Source: Phycisphaerae bacterium (GTDB taxonomy: Bacteria > Planctomycetota > Phycisphaerae > SM23-33). From it: a stretch of 62,203 bases of DNA. Under the pieces are notes generated by a model that did not search any database, was not told the origin of the DNA, and worked only from the letters and a program-made list of their open reading frames with translations. The DNA lies in NCBI GenBank assembly GCA_049975485.1, contig JBNGDC010000007.1:26153-88355 (forward strand). Reading direction: 5' to 3'. Both the position numbers and the translations under genes were made by a program. Positions 1 to 62,203 of this stretch are shown here, piece after piece. Each line of letters starts with the position of its first letter. Positions within the stretch are counted from its first letter, which is position 1.

Positions 1-1307
1 TTATCGGCACCAGCCCGGACTTCATAGACGTCGCCGAGGACCGCCGGCGTTTCGGCGAGATACTCAAAGAGCTGAATCTCACCTGCCCGGAAAGCGGCAC
101 GGCCCTGGGCGTGGACCAGGCCCGTGAGATAGCGGCGAAAATCGGCTACCCGGTGCTGGTCCGGCCCAGCTACGTTCTGGGCGGACGGGCGATGGAGATA
201 GTCTCCGACGAGGCCCAGCTCGACGTTTACATGGCCAGGGCGGTGGACGCCTCGACCGTCGGGCGGGAGCACCCCATACTCATCGACAAGTTCCTTCCGG
301 CGGCCATCGAGGTGGATGTGGACTGCATAGCCGACTTCGGCCCTCGCGCCGACGGCACGCGCGAGGACAACCCCCGCGCGGTGGTCTGCGGCGTAATGGA
401 GCACATCGAGGAGGCGGGCATCCACAGCGGCGACTCCGCCTGCGCCCTGCCGCCGTTCTCGCTGTCGGCCGGCGTCATCGCCGAAATCGAGCGGCAGGCG
501 CGCCTGCTCGCGGAGCGCCTGGAGGTCCGCGGACTGATGAACATCCAGTTCGCCGTCAAGGACGGGCGGGTGCTGATACTGGAGGTCAACCCGCGGGCGT
601 CGCGGACCGTGCCGTTCGTCTCCAAGGCCACCGGAGTACCGTGGGCGAAGCTGGCGGCGAAGGTGATGGCCGGCGAGTCGCTCGAATCGCTGGGCGTAAC
701 CGAACCCCAGCGGCCCCGGCATACGTCGGTCAAGGAAAGCGTCTTCCCGTTCACCAAGTTTCCCGGCGTGGACGTGATACTCGGTCCGGAGATGCGCTCC
801 ACCGGCGAGGTGATGGGCGTGGACATGAGTTTCTCGCTGGCGTTCGCCAAGAGCCAGATGGCCGCCGGCGTGGGACTTCCGGTCGAGGGCACTGTGTTCC
901 TGTCGGTCTGCGACGCTGATAAGCCGTCGGCCGTGGCGATAGCGCAGCGGCTGGCGGCGATGGGCTTCGATATCGTCGCGACGGCCGGCACCTACGCCGC
1001 GATATCCGACGCCGGCGTACGCGCCCGGCGGATACCGAAGCTGCAGGAAGGTCGGCCGAACATCGCGGACATGATCACCAACCGCGAGGTGCAGATGCTC
1101 ATAAACACCCCCACCCGTCGCGGGCCTGCGACGGACGAGGGACGCATCCGTGCGATGGCGACGCTTTATGAGGTGCCGCTGATAACCACCCTCACCGCCG
1201 CCCGGGCCGCCGTGGACGGCATAGCCGCGCTACGCGCCGGCGCCGCCGGCAACGGCTGGGGGGTCCGGCCACTGCAGGACTACTTCCCGCAGACTGCCGG
1301 TAAGTAG
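1..1307 (+). CDS. carB: Carbamoyl-phosphate synthase large subunit, C-terminal part (5' truncated by window edge)
   Basis: Frame is open from position 3 (IGTSPDFIDVAEDRRRF). Motifs GYPVLVRPSYVLGGRAM, MEHIEEAGIHSGDS, EVNPRASRTVPF and LGPEMRSTGEVMG, plus a C-terminal MGS-like domain. Confidence 0.97.
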   Translation, partial: IGTSPDFIDVAEDRRRFGEILKELNLTCPESGTALGVDQAREIAAKIGYPVLVRPSYVLGGRAMEIVSDEAQLDVYMARAVDASTVGREHPILIDKFLPAAIEVDVDCIADFGPRADGTREDNPRAVVCGVMEHIEEAGIHSGDSACALPPFSLSAGVIAEIERQARLLAERLEVRGLMNIQFAVKDGRVLILEVNPRASRTVPFVSKATGVPWAKLAAKVMAGESLESLGVTEPQRPRHTSVKESVFPFTKFPGVDVILGPEMRSTGEVMGVDMSFSLAFAKSQMAAGVGLPVEGTVFLSVCDADKPSAVAIAQRLAAMGFDIVATAGTYAAISDAGVRARRIPKLQEGRPNIADMITNREVQMLINTPTRRGPATDEGRIRAMATLYEVPLITTLTAARAAVDGIAALRAGAAGNGWGVRPLQDYFPQTAGK

Positions 1308-1344
1308 CGCCGATGCGGTGTCCGCCGCTTGTCGTTGGTCGGAA

Positions 1345-1379
1345 AACTCGCGATTCGCGGTTCGTAATTCGCAACTCCC
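1345..1379. repeat. Degenerate heptamer tandem repeat (GATTCGC-like, about 5 units)
   Basis: aactcgc gattcgc ggttcgt aattcgc aactccc, between convergent genes. The same type recurs at 39950-39982. Confidence 0.6.
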
Positions 1380-1385
1380 CCGTGG

Positions 1386-2504
1386 TCAGGGATTCCAGAT
1401 GTCGGCCCAGATCCTGCCTATGGTCATCCCATCGCCGTCCGAGCGGTCCGGCGGCTGACGGCCGGCCATTATCAGATTGCCCTCGCCGTCAAACTCCACA
1501 CGCAACGGCCACAAACTCTCTATGCCGGCGGAGTCCGGCGAGTAGCGCATATCGTGGAACACGACAACGTGCACGCCGTTGAGCCGGCGATACTCCGCCC
1601 GCAGGCGCCCCATGGCGAACCACCTGTAGATTTCATACTCGCGCAGACGCCGGGCCTTCTCAACCCACTCGTTGGATATGTGCCTGGCAGCGCGGCTCAT
1701 CCGCCGACGGCTCGGCGGGTCGTCGCTGAAGTGATGCACACGAACGGCTATCCACTCATCCGGCGTCTCCAGCACCGCCCGCCAGAGGAATATCGTGCCT
1801 ATCTGCGGGTAGGCGTCGGCCCGGAGTATCTCCACGTCGCCCGCGGCGCGTACGGCGATATCGACCGCGCGGTTGTGCATCAGCCGCCCCGTCCCCAGAT
1901 AGCCCATTGCCAGCGCGAAGCCCACCCAGCCGATTATCAGCGTGGCCCTGGGGGCGCTCCCGCCGCGGAACTTCCGCACGACGTAGCAGACCAGCAGCGT
2001 CAGTATCAGCAGCGGCGTGAAGATGAAATCGATGATGCCGATGGTGTTAAGCGCGTAACGCGCGTTGGTCAGCGGCGAGAAGAGCTGCGTACCGTAGGCC
2101 GTCAGGTAGTCCAGCGGCGCATGGCTGTAAAACGCCACCAGTATGCAGGCGTACAGAAGCAGAAATCCCGGCGCCCCGGGCCTGTCGCCGATGTTGGAGG
2201 ACTCCGTCGCATCGGCCTTGAAAAGTCGCAATACCTTTCGCCGGAAATACCACCAGCCAAAGGCGATGGGCAGCGCAAGAAGCGGCGCCAGCAGCAGCGA
2301 ATGTGTCGGCCCGCGGTGGATCTGCATTATGGTGAACTCGTCCACCTCGGCGCCGGTCATCGACAGCAGCGGACCAAAGAAGACGTCGAGGTCGGCGGCC
2401 GCCCCGGCCCCGAAGGCCATCCAGGTGGCGTCGCGGCCGATACGCTGGCGAAAGCCCAACTGCGCCGTCGCCGCACCCAGAAGACCTTGTGTCAGGGAGT
2501 CCAT
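1386..2504 (-). CDS. Membrane-bound metal-dependent hydrolase (YfhP/YdjM-like)
   Basis: N-terminal MDSLTQGLLGAA, then ADLD, HRGPTHSLL and SHAPLDYLTAYGTQLFSP motifs, with several TM segments. Confidence 0.85.
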   Translation of the reverse strand: MDSLTQGLLGAATAQLGFRQRIGRDATWMAFGAGAAADLDVFFGPLLSMTGAEVDEFTIMQIHRGPTHSLLLAPLLALPIAFGWWYFRRKVLRLFKADATESSNIGDRPGAPGFLLLYACILVAFYSHAPLDYLTAYGTQLFSPLTNARYALNTIGIIDFIFTPLLILTLLVCYVVRKFRGGSAPRATLIIGWVGFALAMGYLGTGRLMHNRAVDIAVRAAGDVEILRADAYPQIGTIFLWRAVLETPDEWIAVRVHHFSDDPPSRRRMSRAARHISNEWVEKARRLREYEIYRWFAMGRLRAEYRRLNGVHVVVFHDMRYSPDSAGIESLWPLRVEFDGEGNLIMAGRQPPDRSDGDGMTIGRIWADIWNP

Positions 2505-2542
2505 GGCGTCAAATGCAGCGGTGTTTGGTTAATTGGGAAAGC

Positions 2543-3168
2543 CGTTGAGCAGTTGAACAGTTAAGCAGTTAAACCATTAAGCATTACGCCTGCCTGCTGC
2601 CTGTTGCCTTCCGCCTGCTGCCTACCGGCTGCGGCGGACAAGCTTGCCTGCTGCCTGAGTAGGCCACAGCTTACTGCTTTCCCAGGCCACGACTTGCTGC
2701 TTCTCTAGGCCACGGCTTGCTGCTTCTCTTAGCCCACGGCTTTAGCCGTGGTGTATGGGACCGGTTATATATTCTACTCCAGCCCGTTTTAACGGGCTTA
2801 TCTCGGCCTGAAGAAAGGACGTTAAAACGCCCTCAAACAATCATAGCCGCCGCGGCCGGATACCATGGCCAAAGCCATGGCCTAATTATCGCCGCAGCGT
2901 GTGACGGGTGAACCGAGGGGCCGGATACCATGGCTGAAGCCATGGCCTAATTATCGCCGCAGCGTGTTACGGGTGAACCGAGGGGCCGGGTACCATGGCT
3001 GAAGCCATGGCCTGATCCACAATCCGCAATCCGCGATCATAGATCTGTCGTGCAGGTATGCTCGGCCTAAATCTGCCTATTGCCTCTTGCCTCTTGCCTA
3101 TTGCCTACTGCCTCTTGCCTACTGCCTCCCGCCTGCAATGCTTGACTGCTCAACGGCTTAACTGTTTT
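2543..3168. repeat. Composite intergenic repeat region: octamer and heptamer tandem repeats around a REP-doublet-like element with duplicated ends
   Basis: GTTRARCA octamers at 2543-2583, inverted again at about 3139-3165. CTGCCTR/TTGCCTA heptamers. A 23-bp unit x3 at 2661-2729, palindrome CCACGGCTTTAGCCGTGG at about 2734-2751, and a 65-bp unit x2.5 at 2854-3013 carrying CCATGGCTGAAGCCATGG. Confidence 0.8.
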
Positions 3169-3181
3169 ACAGACTATAGGC

Positions 3182-4741
3182 CTATTCCCACTCGATGGTG
3201 GCGGGCGGCTTGGAGGATATGTCGTACACAACGCGATTGACCCCCCGGACTTCGTTGATGATGCGGTTGGAGATTCCCGCCAGCACGTCGTAGGGTATCC
3301 GCGACCAGTCGGCCGTCATGAAGTCGGCCGAATCCACCGACCGCACGGCCACCACGTGCTCATAGGTCCGTCCGTCGCCCATCACCCCGACCGTCTGGAT
3401 AGGCAGCAGCACGGCGAAGACCTGCGCGGTCTTGCGGTACAGACCGGCCGCTCGTATCTCCTCCAGCAGGATCTGGTCGGCCTTTCGGAGCATCTCCAGC
3501 CGCTCGGGGGTAAGTTCGCCCACGCAGCGGACGGCCAATCCGGGGCCCGGGAACGGATGCCGCCAGACGACCGACTCCGGCAACCCCAACAGTTCGCCGG
3601 CGCGGCGGACCTCGTCCTTGAACAGGTCGCGCAGCGGCTCGATAAGCTCAAAACCCAGCTCCTCCGGCAGACCGCCCACGTTGTGGTGGAGCTTGATGTT
3701 CGCGGCCTCACCCGCCAGCGACCGCCCGGACTCTATCACGTCCGGATACAGCGTGCCCTGGGCGAGGTAGCGGGCGTTGGGAATCTTCTCCGCGGCGGAC
3801 TTGAAGCTCTCAATGAACGTGTGTCCGATGATGCGCCGTTTCTCCTGCGGCTCGACAACGCCCTTCAGCCGCTGAAGGAACAGATCCCCCGCCGGCACCG
3901 TGGTCAGGTCCATCCGGAAATGCTCGGCGAAGGTGCTGCGGACCAGCTCCACCTCGTTGGTTCGCAGCAGGCCGTTGTCCACGAAGATGCACGCCAGCCG
4001 GTCGCCTATCGCCCTGTGCATCAGCGCCGCGACGACCGACGAGTCCACGCCGCCGCTCAGCCCGCATATCACACGCTCATCCGCACCGACCGTGCGGCGG
4101 ATATCCTCGACGGCCGCATCCACGAACGAGCCCATCTGCCACAGGCCCTTGCAGCCGCAGATGTCATAAAGGAAATTCTCGAACACCTGCTGGCCGTGGG
4201 GAGTGTGCGTGACCTCCGGGTGAAACTGCACGCCGTAGAAGTTGCCGCTTTTGTGGCGAACGGCCGCTACGGGACAAGCGGGCGTCTCGGCCAGCGGCTC
4301 AAAGTCCTCCGGAAGCTGCTGCACCTGGTCGGCGTGGCTCATCCAGACTGTCGTCTGCGGCGGCACATTCCGCAGCAGGCGGTCGGCGTTGGTGACCTTG
4401 AGTGCGGTTCGCCCGTATTCGCACGAGGGCGCCGGGCGGACCTCCGCGCCAAGCACACCACAGCCGACCTGCATGCCGTAGCAGATTCCCAGCACCGGCA
4501 CGCCGAAGCCCAGCAGCTCCCGCCGGACCTGCGGGGCGTCCGGTTCATAGACGCTGGCAGGCCCGCCGGTGAAGATAAGCCCGCGGCAGTTCAGGCGCCG
4601 AAGGTCCTCGACGGTAACGTCCGGGCGTGCGAGCACGCTGAAGACCCCGCTCTCACGAACGCGCCGGGCGATGAGCTGGGCGTACTGGCTGCCGAAATCG
4701 ACGATTACTACCGTCTCGGATTGTGCCTCGGGTGCATCCAT
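3182..4741 (-). CDS. guaA: GMP synthase (glutamine-hydrolysing)
   Basis: [51 protein letters not shown] and KPPATIEWE. Start placed at ATG 4741. Confidence 0.98.
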
Positions 4742-56827: not shown

Positions 56828-58800
56828 GCGGCTTTCACATGGCCCTGCCGATAGCCGAGGCACGCGAGGGCGTGGTCTTCGACAGGGCGAACCCCGACGA
56901 CCACAACGACCGCGCTTTCGCCGACTGGGAGGCCCCGCTGGTATGGCATCACCAGGAGAGCTTCATCCTGGTGGACAGGTTCTTTGACGGCAACAAGGGC
57001 CTGCACTTCGCCTTCGAGAAGCGCGTGCCCGAGAAGGTATGGCAGAAGGGCTGGCACCTCTGGTACGACAACGCCGTCCTCGCCCGGCCCCAACCCCCGG
57101 CCGACTGCGTGCTGACCGGCACGTTCGCCCTCGAAGAACTTACCGCCGGTTTCGGCGGCGACAACATGGAGCACGTCCGCCCCTGGACCGGCATCGTCGC
57201 GCGGATGAGGGACCTTCGCAGGTACTACTACCTGTGCCTGGAATATCCGTCCCACGTGGTCCTCTACCGCAGGGACGACCACCAATGGCTGCCGGTGGCG
57301 CGGGCGCAGGTGCATCTGGACGTCTGGACGGCCTACACGCTGCAGCTCGAGATGCGGGGCTCCACGTTCCGGGCGTTTCTGGACGGGCACAAGCTCTTCA
57401 CCGCCACCGACTACGCCTACGCCGACGGCTGGGCCGGCGTCCGCGCCACCTGCACCAGCGTGGTCACGGAGTTCACCATAGAGTCGATCCCGCCGCGTTT
57501 CCCGCAACCGACGCCGCCAACGGAAACCGACCTGCCCGAACCGCAAGTCGTCCGCGACATCGACCTCAGCGACCTAGGCGACCTGTCGAAAACCGTCCGG
57601 CACAACGCGACCGTGCAGATAGGCGCCTTCGCCGGCGGAAGCGAGCCGCAACTGCTGGTGGATCTGCATAACGCCCCCGACGGGGCCACGCATGCCCTTC
57701 TGACGGCCGAGGGGGAGATTATCTGGAAACAGAACCTTGGCAATGTCGGCAAGCTCGTGCCGCTGGGCGGCAAGCCGGGCGAACCCGTCGAGCTGGTCGC
57801 GATGGGCCACGAGCTGGCGATAGTGGACGGCGCCACCGGAAAGGTGCTGCGACGCACTGAGCCGCCGCAGGCCGCCTCCGGCAAGCGCGTCGGCACGGGC
57901 AATTGCCCCTCCGAGACGGCCGATTTGGACGGAGCGGGCGTCGCCAGGCAGTTCTTCATGACGGTCTCGGCCGACGAGAAGGAGATATGGGCGTTCGACC
58001 CGGACCTTTCGCTGCGCTGGCGGGTGGAAACCCTCTCCGGCACGGGGCACGGCAATCACGTCTCGGCCTGCGACGTGGACGGCGACGGCAGAGAGGAGAT
58101 TTTCGCCGGTACGTGCCTGATAGACGCCGACGGCCGGATACTGTGGTCGCAGGAGGAAGTCGCCGCCCGGCTGAAATGCCCTAACGGCGGACACGTGGAC
58201 AGCTCGGTGATGGGCTTTTTCGCCGGGCCGGACAGTCCACCGACGGTGCACATGGCCTCCAGCTCGGCCGGTCACCTGGTGGCCGACGCGAGGACTGGCG
58301 AGCTTATCGCCGTTCACCCGCAGGGGCACGTTCAGGCGGTGGAGGCCGGTCGGGTCGTCCCCGGCAGGCCGGACGTGCAGGCCATCGCCTCCTGCCGCTG
58401 GGGCAGCTACGGCGTCACGGGCATATACGCCGCGGACGGTACGCGCCTGGGGCGGTTCCAGCCGGGCTTCGTCTGCCAGCACGCCCTGGCGGTGAACTGG
58501 ACCGGCCGCGACAGCGAGCTGCTGCTGGTCTGCGACGGCCCGGGCTGGCGCGGGCTGTACGACCATACGGGCAGACGGCTGACAGAGCTGGATTCGCTCG
58601 TGCCGTACGAGGACGCGTTCGCGCAGCGCTACGACCGCGTGCAGGCGTGGAGAGGCGCGATAATCCCCGGCGACCCGCGCGACGCGATTATCCTGAGAGT
58701 CCGCAGCCGACTGCGGATAATCGCCCCCGCCGGCGACCCGCCGACCGACAAACCCCTCAGACCCGTGCGCAGGACAAACATCTCCTCGCCGGCTTATTGA
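56824..58800 (+). CDS. Lectin-like domain + FG-GAP/PL11-like beta-propeller protein
   Basis: N-terminal beta-sandwich (YTLQLEMRGSTFRAFLDG...GWAGV) and GHGNHVSACDVDGDGREEIF...GGHVDS. ATGA overlap with the upstream gene. Confidence 0.65.
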   Translation: MSGFHMALPIAEAREGVVFDRANPDDHNDRAFADWEAPLVWHHQESFILVDRFFDGNKGLHFAFEKRVPEKVWQKGWHLWYDNAVLARPQPPADCVLTGTFALEELTAGFGGDNMEHVRPWTGIVARMRDLRRYYYLCLEYPSHVVLYRRDDHQWLPVARAQVHLDVWTAYTLQLEMRGSTFRAFLDGHKLFTATDYAYADGWAGVRATCTSVVTEFTIESIPPRFPQPTPPTETDLPEPQVVRDIDLSDLGDLSKTVRHNATVQIGAFAGGSEPQLLVDLHNAPDGATHALLTAEGEIIWKQNLGNVGKLVPLGGKPGEPVELVAMGHELAIVDGATGKVLRRTEPPQAASGKRVGTGNCPSETADLDGAGVARQFFMTVSADEKEIWAFDPDLSLRWRVETLSGTGHGNHVSACDVDGDGREEIFAGTCLIDADGRILWSQEEVAARLKCPNGGHVDSSVMGFFAGPDSPPTVHMASSSAGHLVADARTGELIAVHPQGHVQAVEAGRVVPGRPDVQAIASCRWGSYGVTGIYAADGTRLGRFQPGFVCQHALAVNWTGRDSELLLVCDGPGWRGLYDHTGRRLTELDSLVPYEDAFAQRYDRVQAWRGAIIPGDPRDAIILRVRSRLRIIAPAGDPPTDKPLRPVRRTNISSPAY

Positions 58801-58849
58801 ACGGTTGAAGTCCTCCGGCTCACGCTTCGTCCCGTCGGGACTACGTAAA

Positions 58850-59035
58850 GTAGCACACATAGGCCGGGGCTTGCCCCCCGGCGGCCGCAATCTCAGGCCC
58901 GCAGGGCCGTAACGGAATTGGCCGGGGGTGTAAGCCCCCGGAAAGCTCCGTCCCGAAGTACTCGAGGCCCCACGGGCCGGCACGATTCGCTGAGCGTTTG
59001 CCATTCGTGTCGCCCCTTCGGGGCTCTTCGTTTTT
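58850..59035. repeat. 186-bp multi-palindrome REP-like repeat, copy 1
   Basis: Ungapped direct repeat of 61059-61244 with about 18 mismatches by manual count. Preceded by GTCCCGTCGGGACTACG at 58829. Confidence 0.9.
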
Positions 59036-59071
59036 TGACCACGTTCGCACCTGGGTCCAACCGACCAGCGA

Positions 59072-59608
59072 TCAATCTTGCTCGCACGCCTGCGCATTGG
59101 CTTCTGCGACACATTTGTAGACAAGCCGCTGAAAACGCTCGACCTTCACTTCCCTCGTAACAAAGTAGGCGCATCCACACATGCCGACCGGCCAGACCAG
59201 CACCAAGATCCATGGGAATTGGTAGGCAATCATAAACACGACAAGTCCAACTACGAGACATGCTATGCCAATAAGCGAAGGCATAAAGGACAATACGATT
59301 TCAACTCCGTCACCTTCAGGGCCCGTCCCAAGGGTCACTCGCCCACCCCCAATACCTGGTAGTAGAGCGTAGCTTGGGGCCAGCATGGCCTTGCCCGACC
59401 GAAATGTCAGCCGAGTCTCCGACTCAATTGCACATGTCGCACCCCTCCGCCTCAGTTGCTCTGCAAGTATATGCAAGGCCAGCATGTGGCTTTGCCCCTG
59501 TGAGACACTTGCCATACGCGCGTATGTTGTCCTCCGCACCAGCACGTCCACGAGTTTACCAATGCTTATCATGGTCTCTTTGGTCCCATAAAGATCATGC
59601 CCAGACAT
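59072..59608 (-). CDS. Hypothetical membrane protein, paralog of 61416-61952 (candidate immunity protein)
   Basis: Shared blocks LAEQLRRR, LTFRSGKAMLAP, EIVLSFMP, FPW and ERFQRLVYKCVAEA. Two C-terminal TM segments. Start uncertain (59629, 59608 or 59572). Confidence 0.75.
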   Translation of the reverse strand: MSGHDLYGTKETMISIGKLVDVLVRRTTYARMASVSQGQSHMLALHILAEQLRRRGATCAIESETRLTFRSGKAMLAPSYALLPGIGGGRVTLGTGPEGDGVEIVLSFMPSLIGIACLVVGLVVFMIAYQFPWILVLVWPVGMCGCAYFVTREVKVERFQRLVYKCVAEANAQACEQD

Positions 59609-59691
59609 ACATACTACACGTCGCTCCATTGGGAAACCTCATCGTCACAGCTCCTAGCGGCTCCCTACCAGAACGCCTCCGTCACAGACAG

Positions 59692-60321
59692 TCACTCGTC
59701 CTCCAACACCCATTCGCCCTCATACCAAGCGCCTTGCGCGGGAAACCCAGGGTTCCGCCGACATCGTTTCAGCGCCTCCGCAGCTTCGCTGGGAATGGCA
59801 TCCTCCCTTCCGGACCAGCGAAGGTAAAGCGATCCGCCTGTCTCCTCCCGCCTCAGCAACGTATGCACCTTGTCCACACCTTCCGCTTCTGAAGAACCTC
59901 GGTAATATACGTCGTTTGCTCGAGGGGGCCTGGAAGGCCACCAGTGCAGCCAATCCGCGCCGAGGACCCTGGCCTTGTCGGACTGCGATGTACCTTCCCT
60001 TGCATAGCAATCTGATTCTTCCAAGGCCGTACGCAACTCCTCGAAAGACCCGCTGTCGATCCGCACCCACAAGTCTGCATATCCGTCCTCCGACAACACA
60101 AAGGTTCGCATCGCTATCACGTCCGGCAGATTCTCCAGTCCTAGCATTCTCAGCACGGCTGCACGCTCACTCCCATCCAGCGCGGGACACGACGGCCACA
60201 CACGCCAGACAACGATCCCCGCCAAGAACACCGCAGTAATGATGACTATCGGGACGAAGCGCCACCGTCCGCTCAAGTGTCCGCACGTGCGAACCACACG
60301 TCGCGATCTATCGGCATTCAT
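59692..60321 (-). CDS. Hypothetical N-terminally anchored protein (candidate immunity protein)
   Basis: TM FVPIVIITAVFLAGIVVWRVW followed by a soluble domain. Start uncertain, within or just after the Rhs remnant. Confidence 0.6.
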   Translation of the reverse strand: MNADRSRRVVRTCGHLSGRWRFVPIVIITAVFLAGIVVWRVWPSCPALDGSERAAVLRMLGLENLPDVIAMRTFVLSEDGYADLWVRIDSGSFEELRTALEESDCYAREGTSQSDKARVLGADWLHWWPSRPPRANDVYYRGSSEAEGVDKVHTLLRREETGGSLYLRWSGREDAIPSEAAEALKRCRRNPGFPAQGAWYEGEWVLEDE

Positions 60322-60430
60322 GTTGGCGGCTCCCGCGGCGTAGCCCCGGATGTGTCGGGACGACGCCGGGTCGTTGGTGTAGTACAAGGTCCCATCCACT
60401 GTGCCGTCGGTGTTCGTATCCCGCCAGCAC
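60316..60430 (-). pseudogene. Rhs-core remnant interrupted by a 42-bp palindromic insert
   Basis: Translates as CWRDTNTDGTVDGTLYYTND-[PASSRHIRGYAAGA]-ANMN, resembling the planctomycete Rhs segment before ERYxYDPYG. Confidence 0.65.
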
Positions 60431-60536
60431 CGCCTGCGTCGGGTACCTACCGACACGTCACACAACCGCATTGCCCAGAGCGTATTTTATCGTAAAACTC
60501 CGGTGGACAAGACCTTACCCCGCTACCTACTGCCAT

Positions 60537-60845
60537 TCACCCCACAGTGTCATCACCCGCGTTGCCGCCCGAGATATCTCTGACGGCGAGCCGCCAGGTC
60601 AGTTCAGCCATCCCAAACACGGCTGCCCAAGCCACAAGCAAGGTCACCGACCAGACCCAGGACAAGTGCTTTGCCATAGCGTGGAGCGTTATCTCCCCTT
60701 CCAGTCTTAACACCCACGCCGAATAAATCACGACTCCCGTCATTAGTCCCCCGAAATGCTCAACGATGCGCACAATCCGCCTGGGAGGAAAAGCTCTTAC
60801 CTCTCGCGGTCCGGGTCTCTCTCCATTGTCCTCGTTTACCGCCAT
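60537..60845 (-). CDS. Small two-TM hypothetical protein (candidate immunity protein)
   Basis: 102 aa, two hydrophobic segments, and GGAGG upstream of the ATG. Confidence 0.6.
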   Translation of the reverse strand: MAVNEDNGERPGPREVRAFPPRRIVRIVEHFGGLMTGVVIYSAWVLRLEGEITLHAMAKHLSWVWSVTLLVAWAAVFGMAELTWRLAVRDISGGNAGDDTVG

Positions 60846-61058
60846 CCTGCGTCCTCCGCATAGCCACAGGCACTTTTCCTACCGGGCGTTCCTTCGTACT
60901 CTTCCCAATCCCTAAGGTCCGGCTTCGCTTGGGTATAGGTTAGTTCGTAGGTCAAGCCCCGGCGCGTGCTACTCTGCGTAGTCCCAACGGGACAACTCGT
61001 GCTTCGTAGCGACCCTGCACTGCGTAGCTAACCAGGTCAAAGCAGAGCGCTTCCCAAG

Positions 61059-61305
61059 GTAGCACACATAGGCCGGGGCTTGCCCCCCGGCGGCTGCAAT
61101 CTCAGGCCCGCAGGGCCGTCACGAGATTAGCCGGGGGTGTAAACCCCCGGAAAGCTCCGTCCCGAAGTATTGGAGGCCCGACGGGCCGGCACGAGTCGCT
61201 GAACGCCCGCCTTTCGTGCCGCCCCTGCGGGGCTCTTGGTTTTTCAGCAGTACCCTACCGGGGCCTCACGACCCCGGCTATTTGAGTATCGGCCCCTCGG
61301 GCCTC
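61059..61305. repeat. Multi-palindrome REP-like repeat, copy 2 (longer, with its inverted arm)
   Basis: 61059-61244 matches 58850-59035. It continues with CCGGGGCCTCACGACCCCGGCTA and CGGCCCCTCGGGCCT, which mirror the left arm. A partial inverted copy of the left end lies at 60954-60993. Confidence 0.88.
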
Positions 61306-61379
61306 GCGCCCGCCCGCGTCGTAAACCGGCTGTATCCAACCGCCGCAGCAAACTGCATAGTGCGAAACCGTAATACTCG

Positions 61380-61405
61380 CGTGGGCAACAAGTTGCCCAC
61401 CCTAC
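61380..61405 (-). repeat. GTAG-type REP palindrome
   Basis: Minus strand GTAG-G-GTGGGCAAC-TT-GTTGCCCAC, 10 nt after the stop codon of the 61416 gene. Confidence 0.75.
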
Positions 61406-61415
61406 CTGCTACCTG

Positions 61416-61952
61416 CTAAAGAACCTTGGCTTTTCTGGTCGCTTCTGCGGCACACTTCGCGACAAGATGCCGAAAACCCTCGATTGCGACGCGTTTGCGG
61501 AGATACCCGGCTCCCCATAACGCGACCAGCCACGCCAGCGCCACGGGCCATGGAAAACCGTCAGGACCCCCCAAACCATAGGCAGCCCCGACAATAACAA
61601 CAGCCACAACAGGCATAATCGATACCCCAACGATAAAGGGCAAGAAACATACCCGGATCTCCATCCCTGCTCCATTTCGGCCGCTCACAAAAAGAAAGCT
61701 ACCCTTGGAGACACCAAGCAGCCACCCGGCAAGCGGCGACAGTATCCCCTTTCCCGTGCGAAAGGCCAACTGGTTTTCTTTCAAGACGCAGCTTGCCGAC
61801 CTTTTTCTTCTCATCTCGGAGGCAAGCAACTCAAGGACCACCGACTTGTTCGGATACGTTTCAGTGGTGCTCAACTGCTGGTACGCCTCGCCCCAAACCA
61901 GCTTGAACCACAACCGGCCGATGGTAGAGCGGATGCCATTGTCATTGCTCAT
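61416..61952 (-). CDS. Hypothetical membrane protein, paralog of 59072-59608 (candidate immunity protein)
   Basis: Blocks LASEMRRK, LAFRTGKGILSP, EIRVCFLP, FPW and EGFRHLVAKCAAEA. AGAGGA RBS 8 nt before ATG 61952. Confidence 0.78.
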   Translation of the reverse strand: MSNDNGIRSTIGRLWFKLVWGEAYQQLSTTETYPNKSVVLELLASEMRRKRSASCVLKENQLAFRTGKGILSPLAGWLLGVSKGSFLFVSGRNGAGMEIRVCFLPFIVGVSIMPVVAVVIVGAAYGLGGPDGFPWPVALAWLVALWGAGYLRKRVAIEGFRHLVAKCAAEATRKAKVL

Positions 61953-62203
61953 GGTCACGGTCCTCTGGCCACCGGATTGCTACGCGCAGACCACCCGTAT
62001 CCCTGACTTCATGTCGCCGGCCCCGGTTTGGCCACACGCTCACCGCCAGGCGGCAAACCGGAGCCAGAATACCCACTACGGCGCGCATATCAAGCATGGG
62101 CGATCCTGTCTTGCGGCCTGGTCGCAGCGGCGCTGCTTATTGGCGCCTGCACGTGATGCCGGCCGGGCTGGACGCGCCAGTCCTGCCGGCCGGATTCAGA
62201 GGT

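Follow-up and report, generated by a model that had tools for sequence, protein, structure and literature searches.

The window analysed here comprises 62,203 nucleotides of the Phycisphaerae genome G000 (contig C7, positions 26153-88355). Its last part, 58801-62203, carries four small membrane-protein genes that alternate with two remnants (stubs) of an Rhs polymorphic-toxin gene and with palindromic repeats. The locus probably forms the start of a strain-specific accessory island of low guanine-plus-cytosine (GC) content, reaching the contig end about 5 kb beyond the window (contig C7 extends 5028 nt past the window end). GC content is 0.69-0.72 over 58000-58799, falls to 0.53-0.56 over 59000-59599 and lies at 0.55-0.62 up to 62199, against a genome mean of 0.638, which bears out the drop behind the glycan operon described in an earlier sequence-only reading of this DNA. 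Similarly, the open reading frames (ORFs) of the island display a GC content at third codon positions (GC3) of 0.64-0.68, in contrast to about 0.8-0.89 in most neighbours. The RGL11-like gene directly upstream of the island, which stops at 58800, has orthologs in two genomes of the same genus, G002 (92%) and G001 (83%). Homology to both ceases at the RGL11-like stop codon and different genes come next in each, thus confirming that the content of the island varies among close relatives. In G001 (contig C54) the ortholog is followed by an acyltransferase-like gene and glutamate synthase genes, and in G002 (contig C89) by an apparent PIN-type toxin gene with its partner (names read from sequence); the site behind the RGL11-like gene therefore holds a different gene content in each of the three genomes. 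The features of the island are collected in Table 1.

Table 1. Features of the island at 58801-62203 (window coordinates).
Feature	Positions	Strand	Description
repeat copy A	58847-59035		truncated REPIN-type element: left arm and spacer, right arm lost
o185	59072-59629	-	185-residue membrane ORF, paralog of o180
o259	59692-60471	-	259-residue ORF, longer form of o209
o209	59692-60321	-	209-residue form starting at ATG 60321; sole form in the public database
core stub	60317-60429	-	Rhs stub fused in frame upstream of o209; no DPxGL core end and no toxin domain behind it
o102	60537-60845	-	102-residue ORF, one hydrophobic segment (61-82)
39-codon ORF	60836-60955	-	10-nt overlap with the o102 start
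partial inverted repeat	60950-61001		incomplete; matches the left end of the 189-nt repeat in inverted orientation (78.6% identity by blastn across 56 nt, E 9e-9)
repeat copy B	61056-61306		complete REPIN-type element, two inverted arms
YDAAG stub	61294-61344	-	Rhs stub, peptide GWIQPVYDA...; ends where a REPIN arm begins
stem-loop	61380-61405		8-bp stem just past the o180 stop; second dispersed hairpin family
o180	61416-61958	-	180-residue membrane ORF, paralog of o185

The two stubs lie on one strand and are collinear in an Rhs ORF. The core-stub peptide WRDTNTDGTVDGTLYYTND (60426 to 60370) is identical at 14 of 19 positions to residues 1808-1826 of a relative's 2111-residue Rhs ORF (E 0.02, in a small library), and the YDAAG stub (61344 to 61294) aligns by blastx with Rhs residues 1685-1701. 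A profile of ten Rhs C-regions, searched against 79,143 six-frame fragments of G000, ranked the YDAAG stub fifth (E 1.1) and the core stub sixth (E 3.6). The same profile identified significant stubs on contigs C68 (E 1.9e-14 and 5.9e-9) and C33 (E 7e-5), together with a signal-peptide protein on contig C30 (E 1.5e-4). The DNA of the YDAAG stub is 85% identical over 102 nt to C33:9345-9446, the site of the significant C33 stub. Metagenome contigs from one sediment study, whose best-matching sample may be the source sample, pile up on the core stub to a depth of 74, compared with about 12-16 alongside, and diverge at 60316/60317 and at 60429. The pile-up and its break points therefore define the core piece as a discrete module common in the community. 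A second depth spike, at 61274-61390, covers the YDAAG stub. Blastx, profile ranks and metagenome depth together establish that the stubs derive from Rhs. The Rhs-core remnant proposed earlier at 60316-60430 is supported in its identity, rank and depth, although its E-value of 3.6 is not significant alone.

Long Rhs ORFs are found in related genomes. Two peptides that stand beside longer repeat copies on C68 occur adjacent to each other inside ORFs of up to 4866 residues, and such long ORFs are found in 19 of 150 other Phycisphaerae genomes (seven of 2000 residues or more). A relative's 2253-residue ORF matches TIGR03696 with 57 bits and displays RHS and YD repeats; behind it come a 160-residue ORF and then a 620-residue orphan that shares 86.6% identity with the main gene across 1087 nt. 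The last member of this array is a stub, 99.8% identical over 481 nt, which ends just past the YDAAG region. The window stubs correspond to Rhs sequence that lies some 250-400 residues ahead of the core end. TIGR03696 itself has no match in the window or in the rest of C7, its sole match in the genome being C30:37617-37688 (24.7 bits), and PF05593 has none in the assembly, which is 94% complete. Neither the island nor the 5 kb past it yielded a core end, a toxin domain or an RHS repeat. The full Rhs gene that had been anticipated past 62203 is likewise absent from those 5 kb, and the RAYT-like Y1 transposase genes (RAYT, REP-associated tyrosine transposase; REP, repetitive extragenic palindrome) sought there were found instead on contigs C10 and C3. 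The C30 match falls in a 338-residue ORF (C30:36778-37794, minus strand) in which an Rhs-core tail (...DPQGL) comes directly after a signal peptide and about 280 residues form the C-terminal domain; the product is a polymorphic-toxin-like protein without the Rhs shell. On C68, positions 1-3400 form a second variable locus, downstream of LemA and M48-peptidase genes, with Rhs stubs, a REPIN (a REP doublet), a 185-residue membrane ORF and an FRG-domain ORF.

The four ORFs between and beside the stubs are co-oriented on the minus strand, and each contains at least one 19-residue window with a Kyte-Doolittle mean of 1.6 or more, in agreement with the transmembrane segments previously assigned to them. 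The paralogs o185 and o180 are 32-34% identical. In o185 an N-terminal alpha/beta part is followed by a hydrophobic hairpin at about residues 107-159 and a C-terminal helix; o209 has its membrane anchor at the N-terminus (residues 18-45), and an alpha/beta domain is predicted for it as well. Homologs of o185 are restricted to P0002 (82%), P0004, P0005 (E 1e-5) and one ORF in genome G259. A sequence search with o185 gave two matches, and an o185/o180 profile gave three among 1.84 billion representatives, none at E ≤ 0.001 in 40 relatives' genomes (one marginal match contains stops) and one, in G259, among 400 genomes of the class. The G259 protein is absent from 60 other genomes of its family, and a metagenome locus scan for o185/o180 gave no match. 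These four to five distinct members nevertheless have invariant residues and topology in common and, judged from their sequences, constitute a real family despite its small size. The G259 homolog, a sporadic 174-residue ORF (G259:C256:290-811), lies between skp/bamA-like and lpxD-like genes. A database search with o259 retrieved only itself, as the 209-residue form (98%); the sole homolog found for o102 is o102 itself; no family was found for the 39-codon ORF; and a protein atlas search with the island ORFs gave only "hypothetical" clusters. The expectation that homologs of these genes would lie behind Rhs toxin tips thus finds no support, the ORFs being near-orphans and the one outside homolog with a visible context having the setting just described.

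Position is what suggests a function for these genes. The start of o209 lies right behind the core stub and o102 overlaps the 39-codon ORF, a toxin tip remaining at neither. The headless reading frame noted earlier does exist as this 39-codon ORF. It may represent the end of a toxin gene since lost, although nothing beyond the overlap is demonstrable for it. By context, the four ORFs are putative orphan immunity genes, the argument being strongest for o209, directly behind the core stub, and o102, and weakest for o185 and o180.

The repeats constitute a second layer of the island. Segments 58847-59035 (copy A, between the RGL11-like stop and the 3' end of o185) and 61056-61244 (within copy B) form a 189-nt direct repeat with 90% identity. 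Both contain the 46-nt two-hairpin unit filed as Acido-Lenti-1 (RF01687, gathering score 37 bits). The match at 61104-61150 (minus orientation) scores 40.1 bits and is above the gathering score, while those at 58895-58941 (minus orientation, 30.0 bits, E 4.1e-4; 38 bits with nhmmer) and 61258-61304 (plus orientation, 29.1 bits) are under it. In copy B the arms 61104-61150 and 61258-61304 are 72% complementary and flank a 107-nt spacer, and 61100-61308 folds better than 200 of 200 shuffles (z -3.55). The stem-loop at 61380-61405 also folds well (z -2.9, 3 of 200 shuffles equally good). Its family has 10 copies in G000 (in the window and on C10, C11, C13, C33, C43, C51 and C54), with G/C swaps on both stem sides and a conserved CCCTAC tail, and at least six copies in G001. 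The palindromes listed earlier thus stand in part: two of them are the 189-nt repeat and 61380-61405 is a real hairpin, whereas 60328-60369 (19 of 200 shuffles as good) and 60954-61001 (96 of 200) fold no better than shuffled sequence. On the evidence of sequence and predicted fold, the main window palindromes are REP/REPIN-type non-autonomous elements with Acido-Lenti-1 as their unit.

At least 26 RF01687 matches lie above the cut-off in G000, with 150 of 875 candidates scored, and an nhmmer profile built from those 26 identified 39 copies at 23 places. On C10 three minus-orientation copies precede and three plus-orientation copies follow a 148-residue gene (C10:80909-81355) that encodes an IS200-like Y1 transposase (PF01797, 98.9 bits; NF033573, 76.7 bits). 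A second Y1 transposase gene, C3:81300-81746, whose product is 57% identical to that of C10, is similarly flanked by Acido-Lenti-1 copies in inverted orientation. Copy B reproduces both flanks of the C3 gene: 61104-61194 aligns to the left flank, ending 3 nt short of the ATG, 61214-61306 aligns to the right flank, starting at the second base past the stop, and about 19 nt occupy the place of the ORF. Copy B, as two flanks minus the ORF, therefore has the make-up of a transposase-less derivative of the REPIN or miniature inverted-repeat transposable element (MITE) type. It would represent the complete doublet and copy A a truncated one. Further doublets with 105-114-nt spacers are found at four places (C33, C12, C44 and C50), making five in all, and one more, with a spacer of about 150 nt, lies on C68. 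In an empty-site comparison, the sequences flanking the C12 REPIN fell on separate contigs in both G001 and G002. The palindromes are thus REP-like in the strict sense, their family flanking RAYT-like Y1 genes elsewhere in the genome, and the presumed driver of the window repeats is a RAYT-type, IS200-like Y1 (HUH) transposase encoded outside the window. RAYT-clade genes number three in G000 and up to eight in other genomes. The C10 gene sits between cysS-like and ruvC-like genes and occupies the same locus in two other Phycisphaerae metagenome-assembled genomes (MAGs; 89-90% identity), a kept position that fits a domesticated RAYT. Two further Y1 transposase matches with the same scores, C2:14758-15102 and C2:18800-19144, lie 4 kb apart and may belong to a genuine IS200-type element that is present in several copies and separate from the RAYT-like genes.

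The distribution of the motif extends well beyond toxin loci. Rhs-stub islands account for four of the 23 places (two in the window, C33:34837-35044 and C68:219-461) and transposase flanks for two; of the other places inspected, most are bounded by long ORFs whose GC3 is typical of the genome, and several are at contig ends. The three YDAAG-stub/REPIN-arm junctions all go back to a single junction by copying. In the window it stands within a composite repeat of REPIN arm, stub and stem-loop that recurs at C33:34834-35151 (84% over 318 nt), is similar to a sequence on C68 and has a counterpart in G001 (G001:C86, 74% over 310 nt), where its neighbour is an M48 peptidase gene, just as on C68. One composite copy, C33:9345-9446, occupies ordinary intergenic DNA between convergent genes. 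The 13 Rhs-bearing loci of nine other genomes contain zero copies of the motif, and at least three of those genomes carry it elsewhere. Enrichment of the repeats at toxin/immunity junctions, as had been predicted, was thus not observed. One metagenome contig (depth 17) has 31 other letters in place of 61013-61396, a stretch that takes in the REPIN and the stub along with most of the stem-loop; the contig's shorter side measures 21 letters and it may come from another organism or repeat, so that it is only a hint.

Taken together, these observations make it probable that a strain-specific Rhs orphan array has decayed here, with REPIN elements forming a separate layer upon it. An Rhs-type polymorphic-toxin array would have lost its core end, its toxin domains and its full-length rhs gene, leaving two stubs and four small membrane-protein genes, of which at least o209 and o102 occupy the positions of immunity genes. 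The retained ORFs would then act as orphan immunity genes protecting the cell against the Rhs toxins of neighbours. REPINs may have colonised the dispensable DNA of the decaying array, their hairpins presumably serving as single-stranded DNA substrates of a RAYT-like enzyme, and one REPIN-stub junction may later have been copied to other loci. The earlier observations are in large part right, and the interpretation placed on them, an immunity-gene archive with REP-delimited cassettes, receives partial support. Read as a decayed array, the island illustrates how Rhs arrays could decay to stubs and small genes in a free-living sediment bacterium, a state expected to be the source of orphan immunity genes, with the immunity role here proposed from context.

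Several observations weigh against this explanation. Neither window stub is significant alone genome-wide, and the YDAAG stub, being part of the composite repeat, may have arrived with the repeat and so not mark a local dead gene. The island ORFs belong to no Pfam, NCBIfam or PADLOC family and hence to no known immunity family; the AlphaFold models of o209 and o185 are poor (predicted local distance difference test scores of 58 and 60, respectively) and Foldseek retrieved nothing for them from the PDB at E ≤ 0.001. The gene upstream of o180 is a divergent gene, not a toxin gene, and the only outside o185/o180 homolog with a visible context, that of G259, is not beside an Rhs gene. An rhs gene may be unassembled, since the assembly is 94% complete and divided into 84 contigs and repeats break contigs. 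The action of a RAYT on Acido-Lenti-1 hairpins is itself a proposal from sequence, and the co-occurrence counts for motif and transposase clade given below overstate their link, the genomes being kin and not independent.

Alternatively, the ORFs could be unrelated to Rhs, the island being a patch of orphan membrane-protein genes and the Rhs pieces either passengers of the composite repeat or chance matches. The recurrence of the composite at other loci and in G001, including the copy between convergent genes, the setting of the G259 homolog, the stub E-values and the lack of family among the island ORFs all speak for such a patch, and we regard it as a possible though distinctly less probable origin. 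It accounts poorly for the core stub, which lies outside the composite repeat, abuts the o209 start in frame and is a discrete multi-copy module of the community with two break points. Furthermore, two of the six best genome-wide Rhs matches are no more than 1.1 kb apart, share a strand and follow the order of the gene, and at the third locus, on C68, significant stubs alternate with a small membrane ORF. These features argue against such a patch.

A more far-reaching version of the decayed array, in which RAYT-driven Acido-Lenti-1 REPINs insert at Rhs recombination stubs and sever the toxin genes, the REPIN-stub composite then spreading as a unit, appears improbable. If true, it would turn toxin arrays into toxin-less immunity archives and make this REPIN family an agent of both toxin disarmament and cassette shuffling.

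The 46-nt units could, in addition, be small-RNA genes that regulate or stabilise neighbouring transcripts and not mobile DNA repeats. Rfam files RF01687 as a small RNA (sRNA) gene of unknown function, and Acido-Lenti-1 is rated a probable non-coding RNA in Table 1 of Weinberg et al. 2010 (PMC2864571). The hairpins are stable, and a terminator-like hairpin with a T-run lies on the plus strand at 59012-59024, within copy A and behind the glycan gene. In contrast, a scan for promoters and terminators found such sites to be no commoner than in shuffled sequence, and a genome carries tens of the units in either orientation, which also pair as inverted doublets of fixed spacing and stand on the two sides of Y1 transposase genes. 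The flanking geometry, with a minus copy upstream and a plus copy downstream, recurs in seven of 36 loci of relatives of the C10 protein in species genomes, six of them at or above the gathering score, spanning Phycisphaerae, other Planctomycetota and one Bryobacterales MAG. In the Bryobacterales (Acidobacteriota) genome three of five Y1 genes are flanked likewise and doublets have 94-116-nt spacers. Of 149 further Phycisphaerae genomes, 62 have the motif (E ≤ 1e-5) and 53 the transposase clade (E ≤ 1e-25); 48 carry both, five the clade alone, 14 the motif alone and 82 neither. In seven further genomes at least eight transposase genes, among the matches listed, have a motif copy within 50-90 nt. 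A role as small-RNA genes is therefore quite unlikely, and Acido-Lenti-1 behaves, as far as sequence and genomic arrangement indicate, as a DNA repeat tied to a Y1 transposase clade. In the literature searched, the PDF supplement of Weinberg et al. 2010 excepted, no paper was found that links Acido-Lenti-1 to a transposase. This link to a RAYT-like clade is the most useful result of the analysis: it provides a testable function, alters the annotation of such matches and carries REPIN-RAYT systems into new phyla, the REP/REPIN behaviour extending to many Planctomycetota and at least one Acidobacteriota genome.

Least credible of all is the proposal that the REP-like elements are cassette boundaries that move immunity cassettes with a RAYT as attC sites do in integrons: RAYT-like genes are present in G000, REPINs do stand at two island junctions and, on C68, exactly between the YDAAG stub and the next Rhs stub start, and the swap of 61013-61396 would conform, but 19 of the 23 motif places lie outside Rhs-stub islands, the 13 Rhs loci of other genomes lack the motif, the three stub-REPIN junctions are one junction copied, the repeat is found at only two of five module junctions, and the identity of about 33% between o185 and o180, set against 90% between their repeats, shows that the genes did not travel with the repeats. 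The repeats, as general genome repeats plus one copied composite, therefore mark some junctions and not cassette boundaries. Rhs stubs also lie at junctions, and the relative's array uses stubs as homology tracts, contrary to the view that REP elements and not Rhs-core homology delimit the cassettes; mobilisation of cassettes by REP elements is likewise seen in none of the data.

Just past the window, at C7:88683-91319, lies a gene for an 878-residue secreted protein with no Pfam family, whose C-terminal 570 residues are 48% identical to ORFs of G001 and G002. Behind it, on the minus strand, come three small ORFs for membrane proteins or lipoproteins.

The locus can be placed among several known systems. 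Integron-type cassette arrays are built on attC sites and a tyrosine integrase; the island repeats match RF01687 instead. IS200/IS605 elements carry subterminal hairpins either side of a Y1 transposase gene, and their short derivatives consist of the two ends only. Copy B resembles such derivatives in consisting of only the two flanks of a Y1 gene. In contrast to IS200/IS605, no tnpB is present, and the single C10 gene at a conserved locus fits a domesticated RAYT better than an active insertion sequence.

With the Rhs orphan toxin/immunity arrays of Enterobacteria, in the features taken here from Poole et al. 2011 (PMC3150448) and Koskiniemi et al. 2014 (PMC3967940), the island has in common core-homologous stubs followed by small co-oriented genes, in a low-GC locus that varies among close relatives. 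The relative's intact array of the same Rhs clade displays the corresponding order of main gene, small ORF, orphan and stub. The island differs from these arrays in that its core end and toxin domain are missing and the assembly contains no main rhs gene, in the origin of its stubs well ahead of the core end, in carrying inserted REPINs and in the putative status of its immunity genes; its two collinear stubs, at the 5' side of modules, are each weak alone.

The REPIN-RAYT systems (Bertels & Rainey 2011, PMC3116915; PMC3337134; PMC5581495) display a Y1 gene between REP copies in inverted orientation, with tens more scattered over the genome, many of them inverted doublets, and a transposase at a fixed housekeeping locus in related genomes. 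G000 has both a flanked Y1 HUH transposase and dispersed inverted doublets, and its C10 gene keeps one locus in two other MAGs. Unlike those systems, the unit here is a 46-nt two-hairpin element, the doublet spacer of about 105-114 nt corresponds to the gene's own flanks in a MITE-like manner, the hosts are Planctomycetota and Acidobacteriota, and several RAYT-clade genes are present per genome. Finally, the repeat agrees with the Acido-Lenti-1 motif (PMC2864571, Table 1) in both sequence and structure, scoring above the gathering threshold at 61104-61150 and at at least 26 places in the genome. In contrast to the small-RNA gene under which the motif is filed, it appears to act here as a DNA repeat tied to a transposase.

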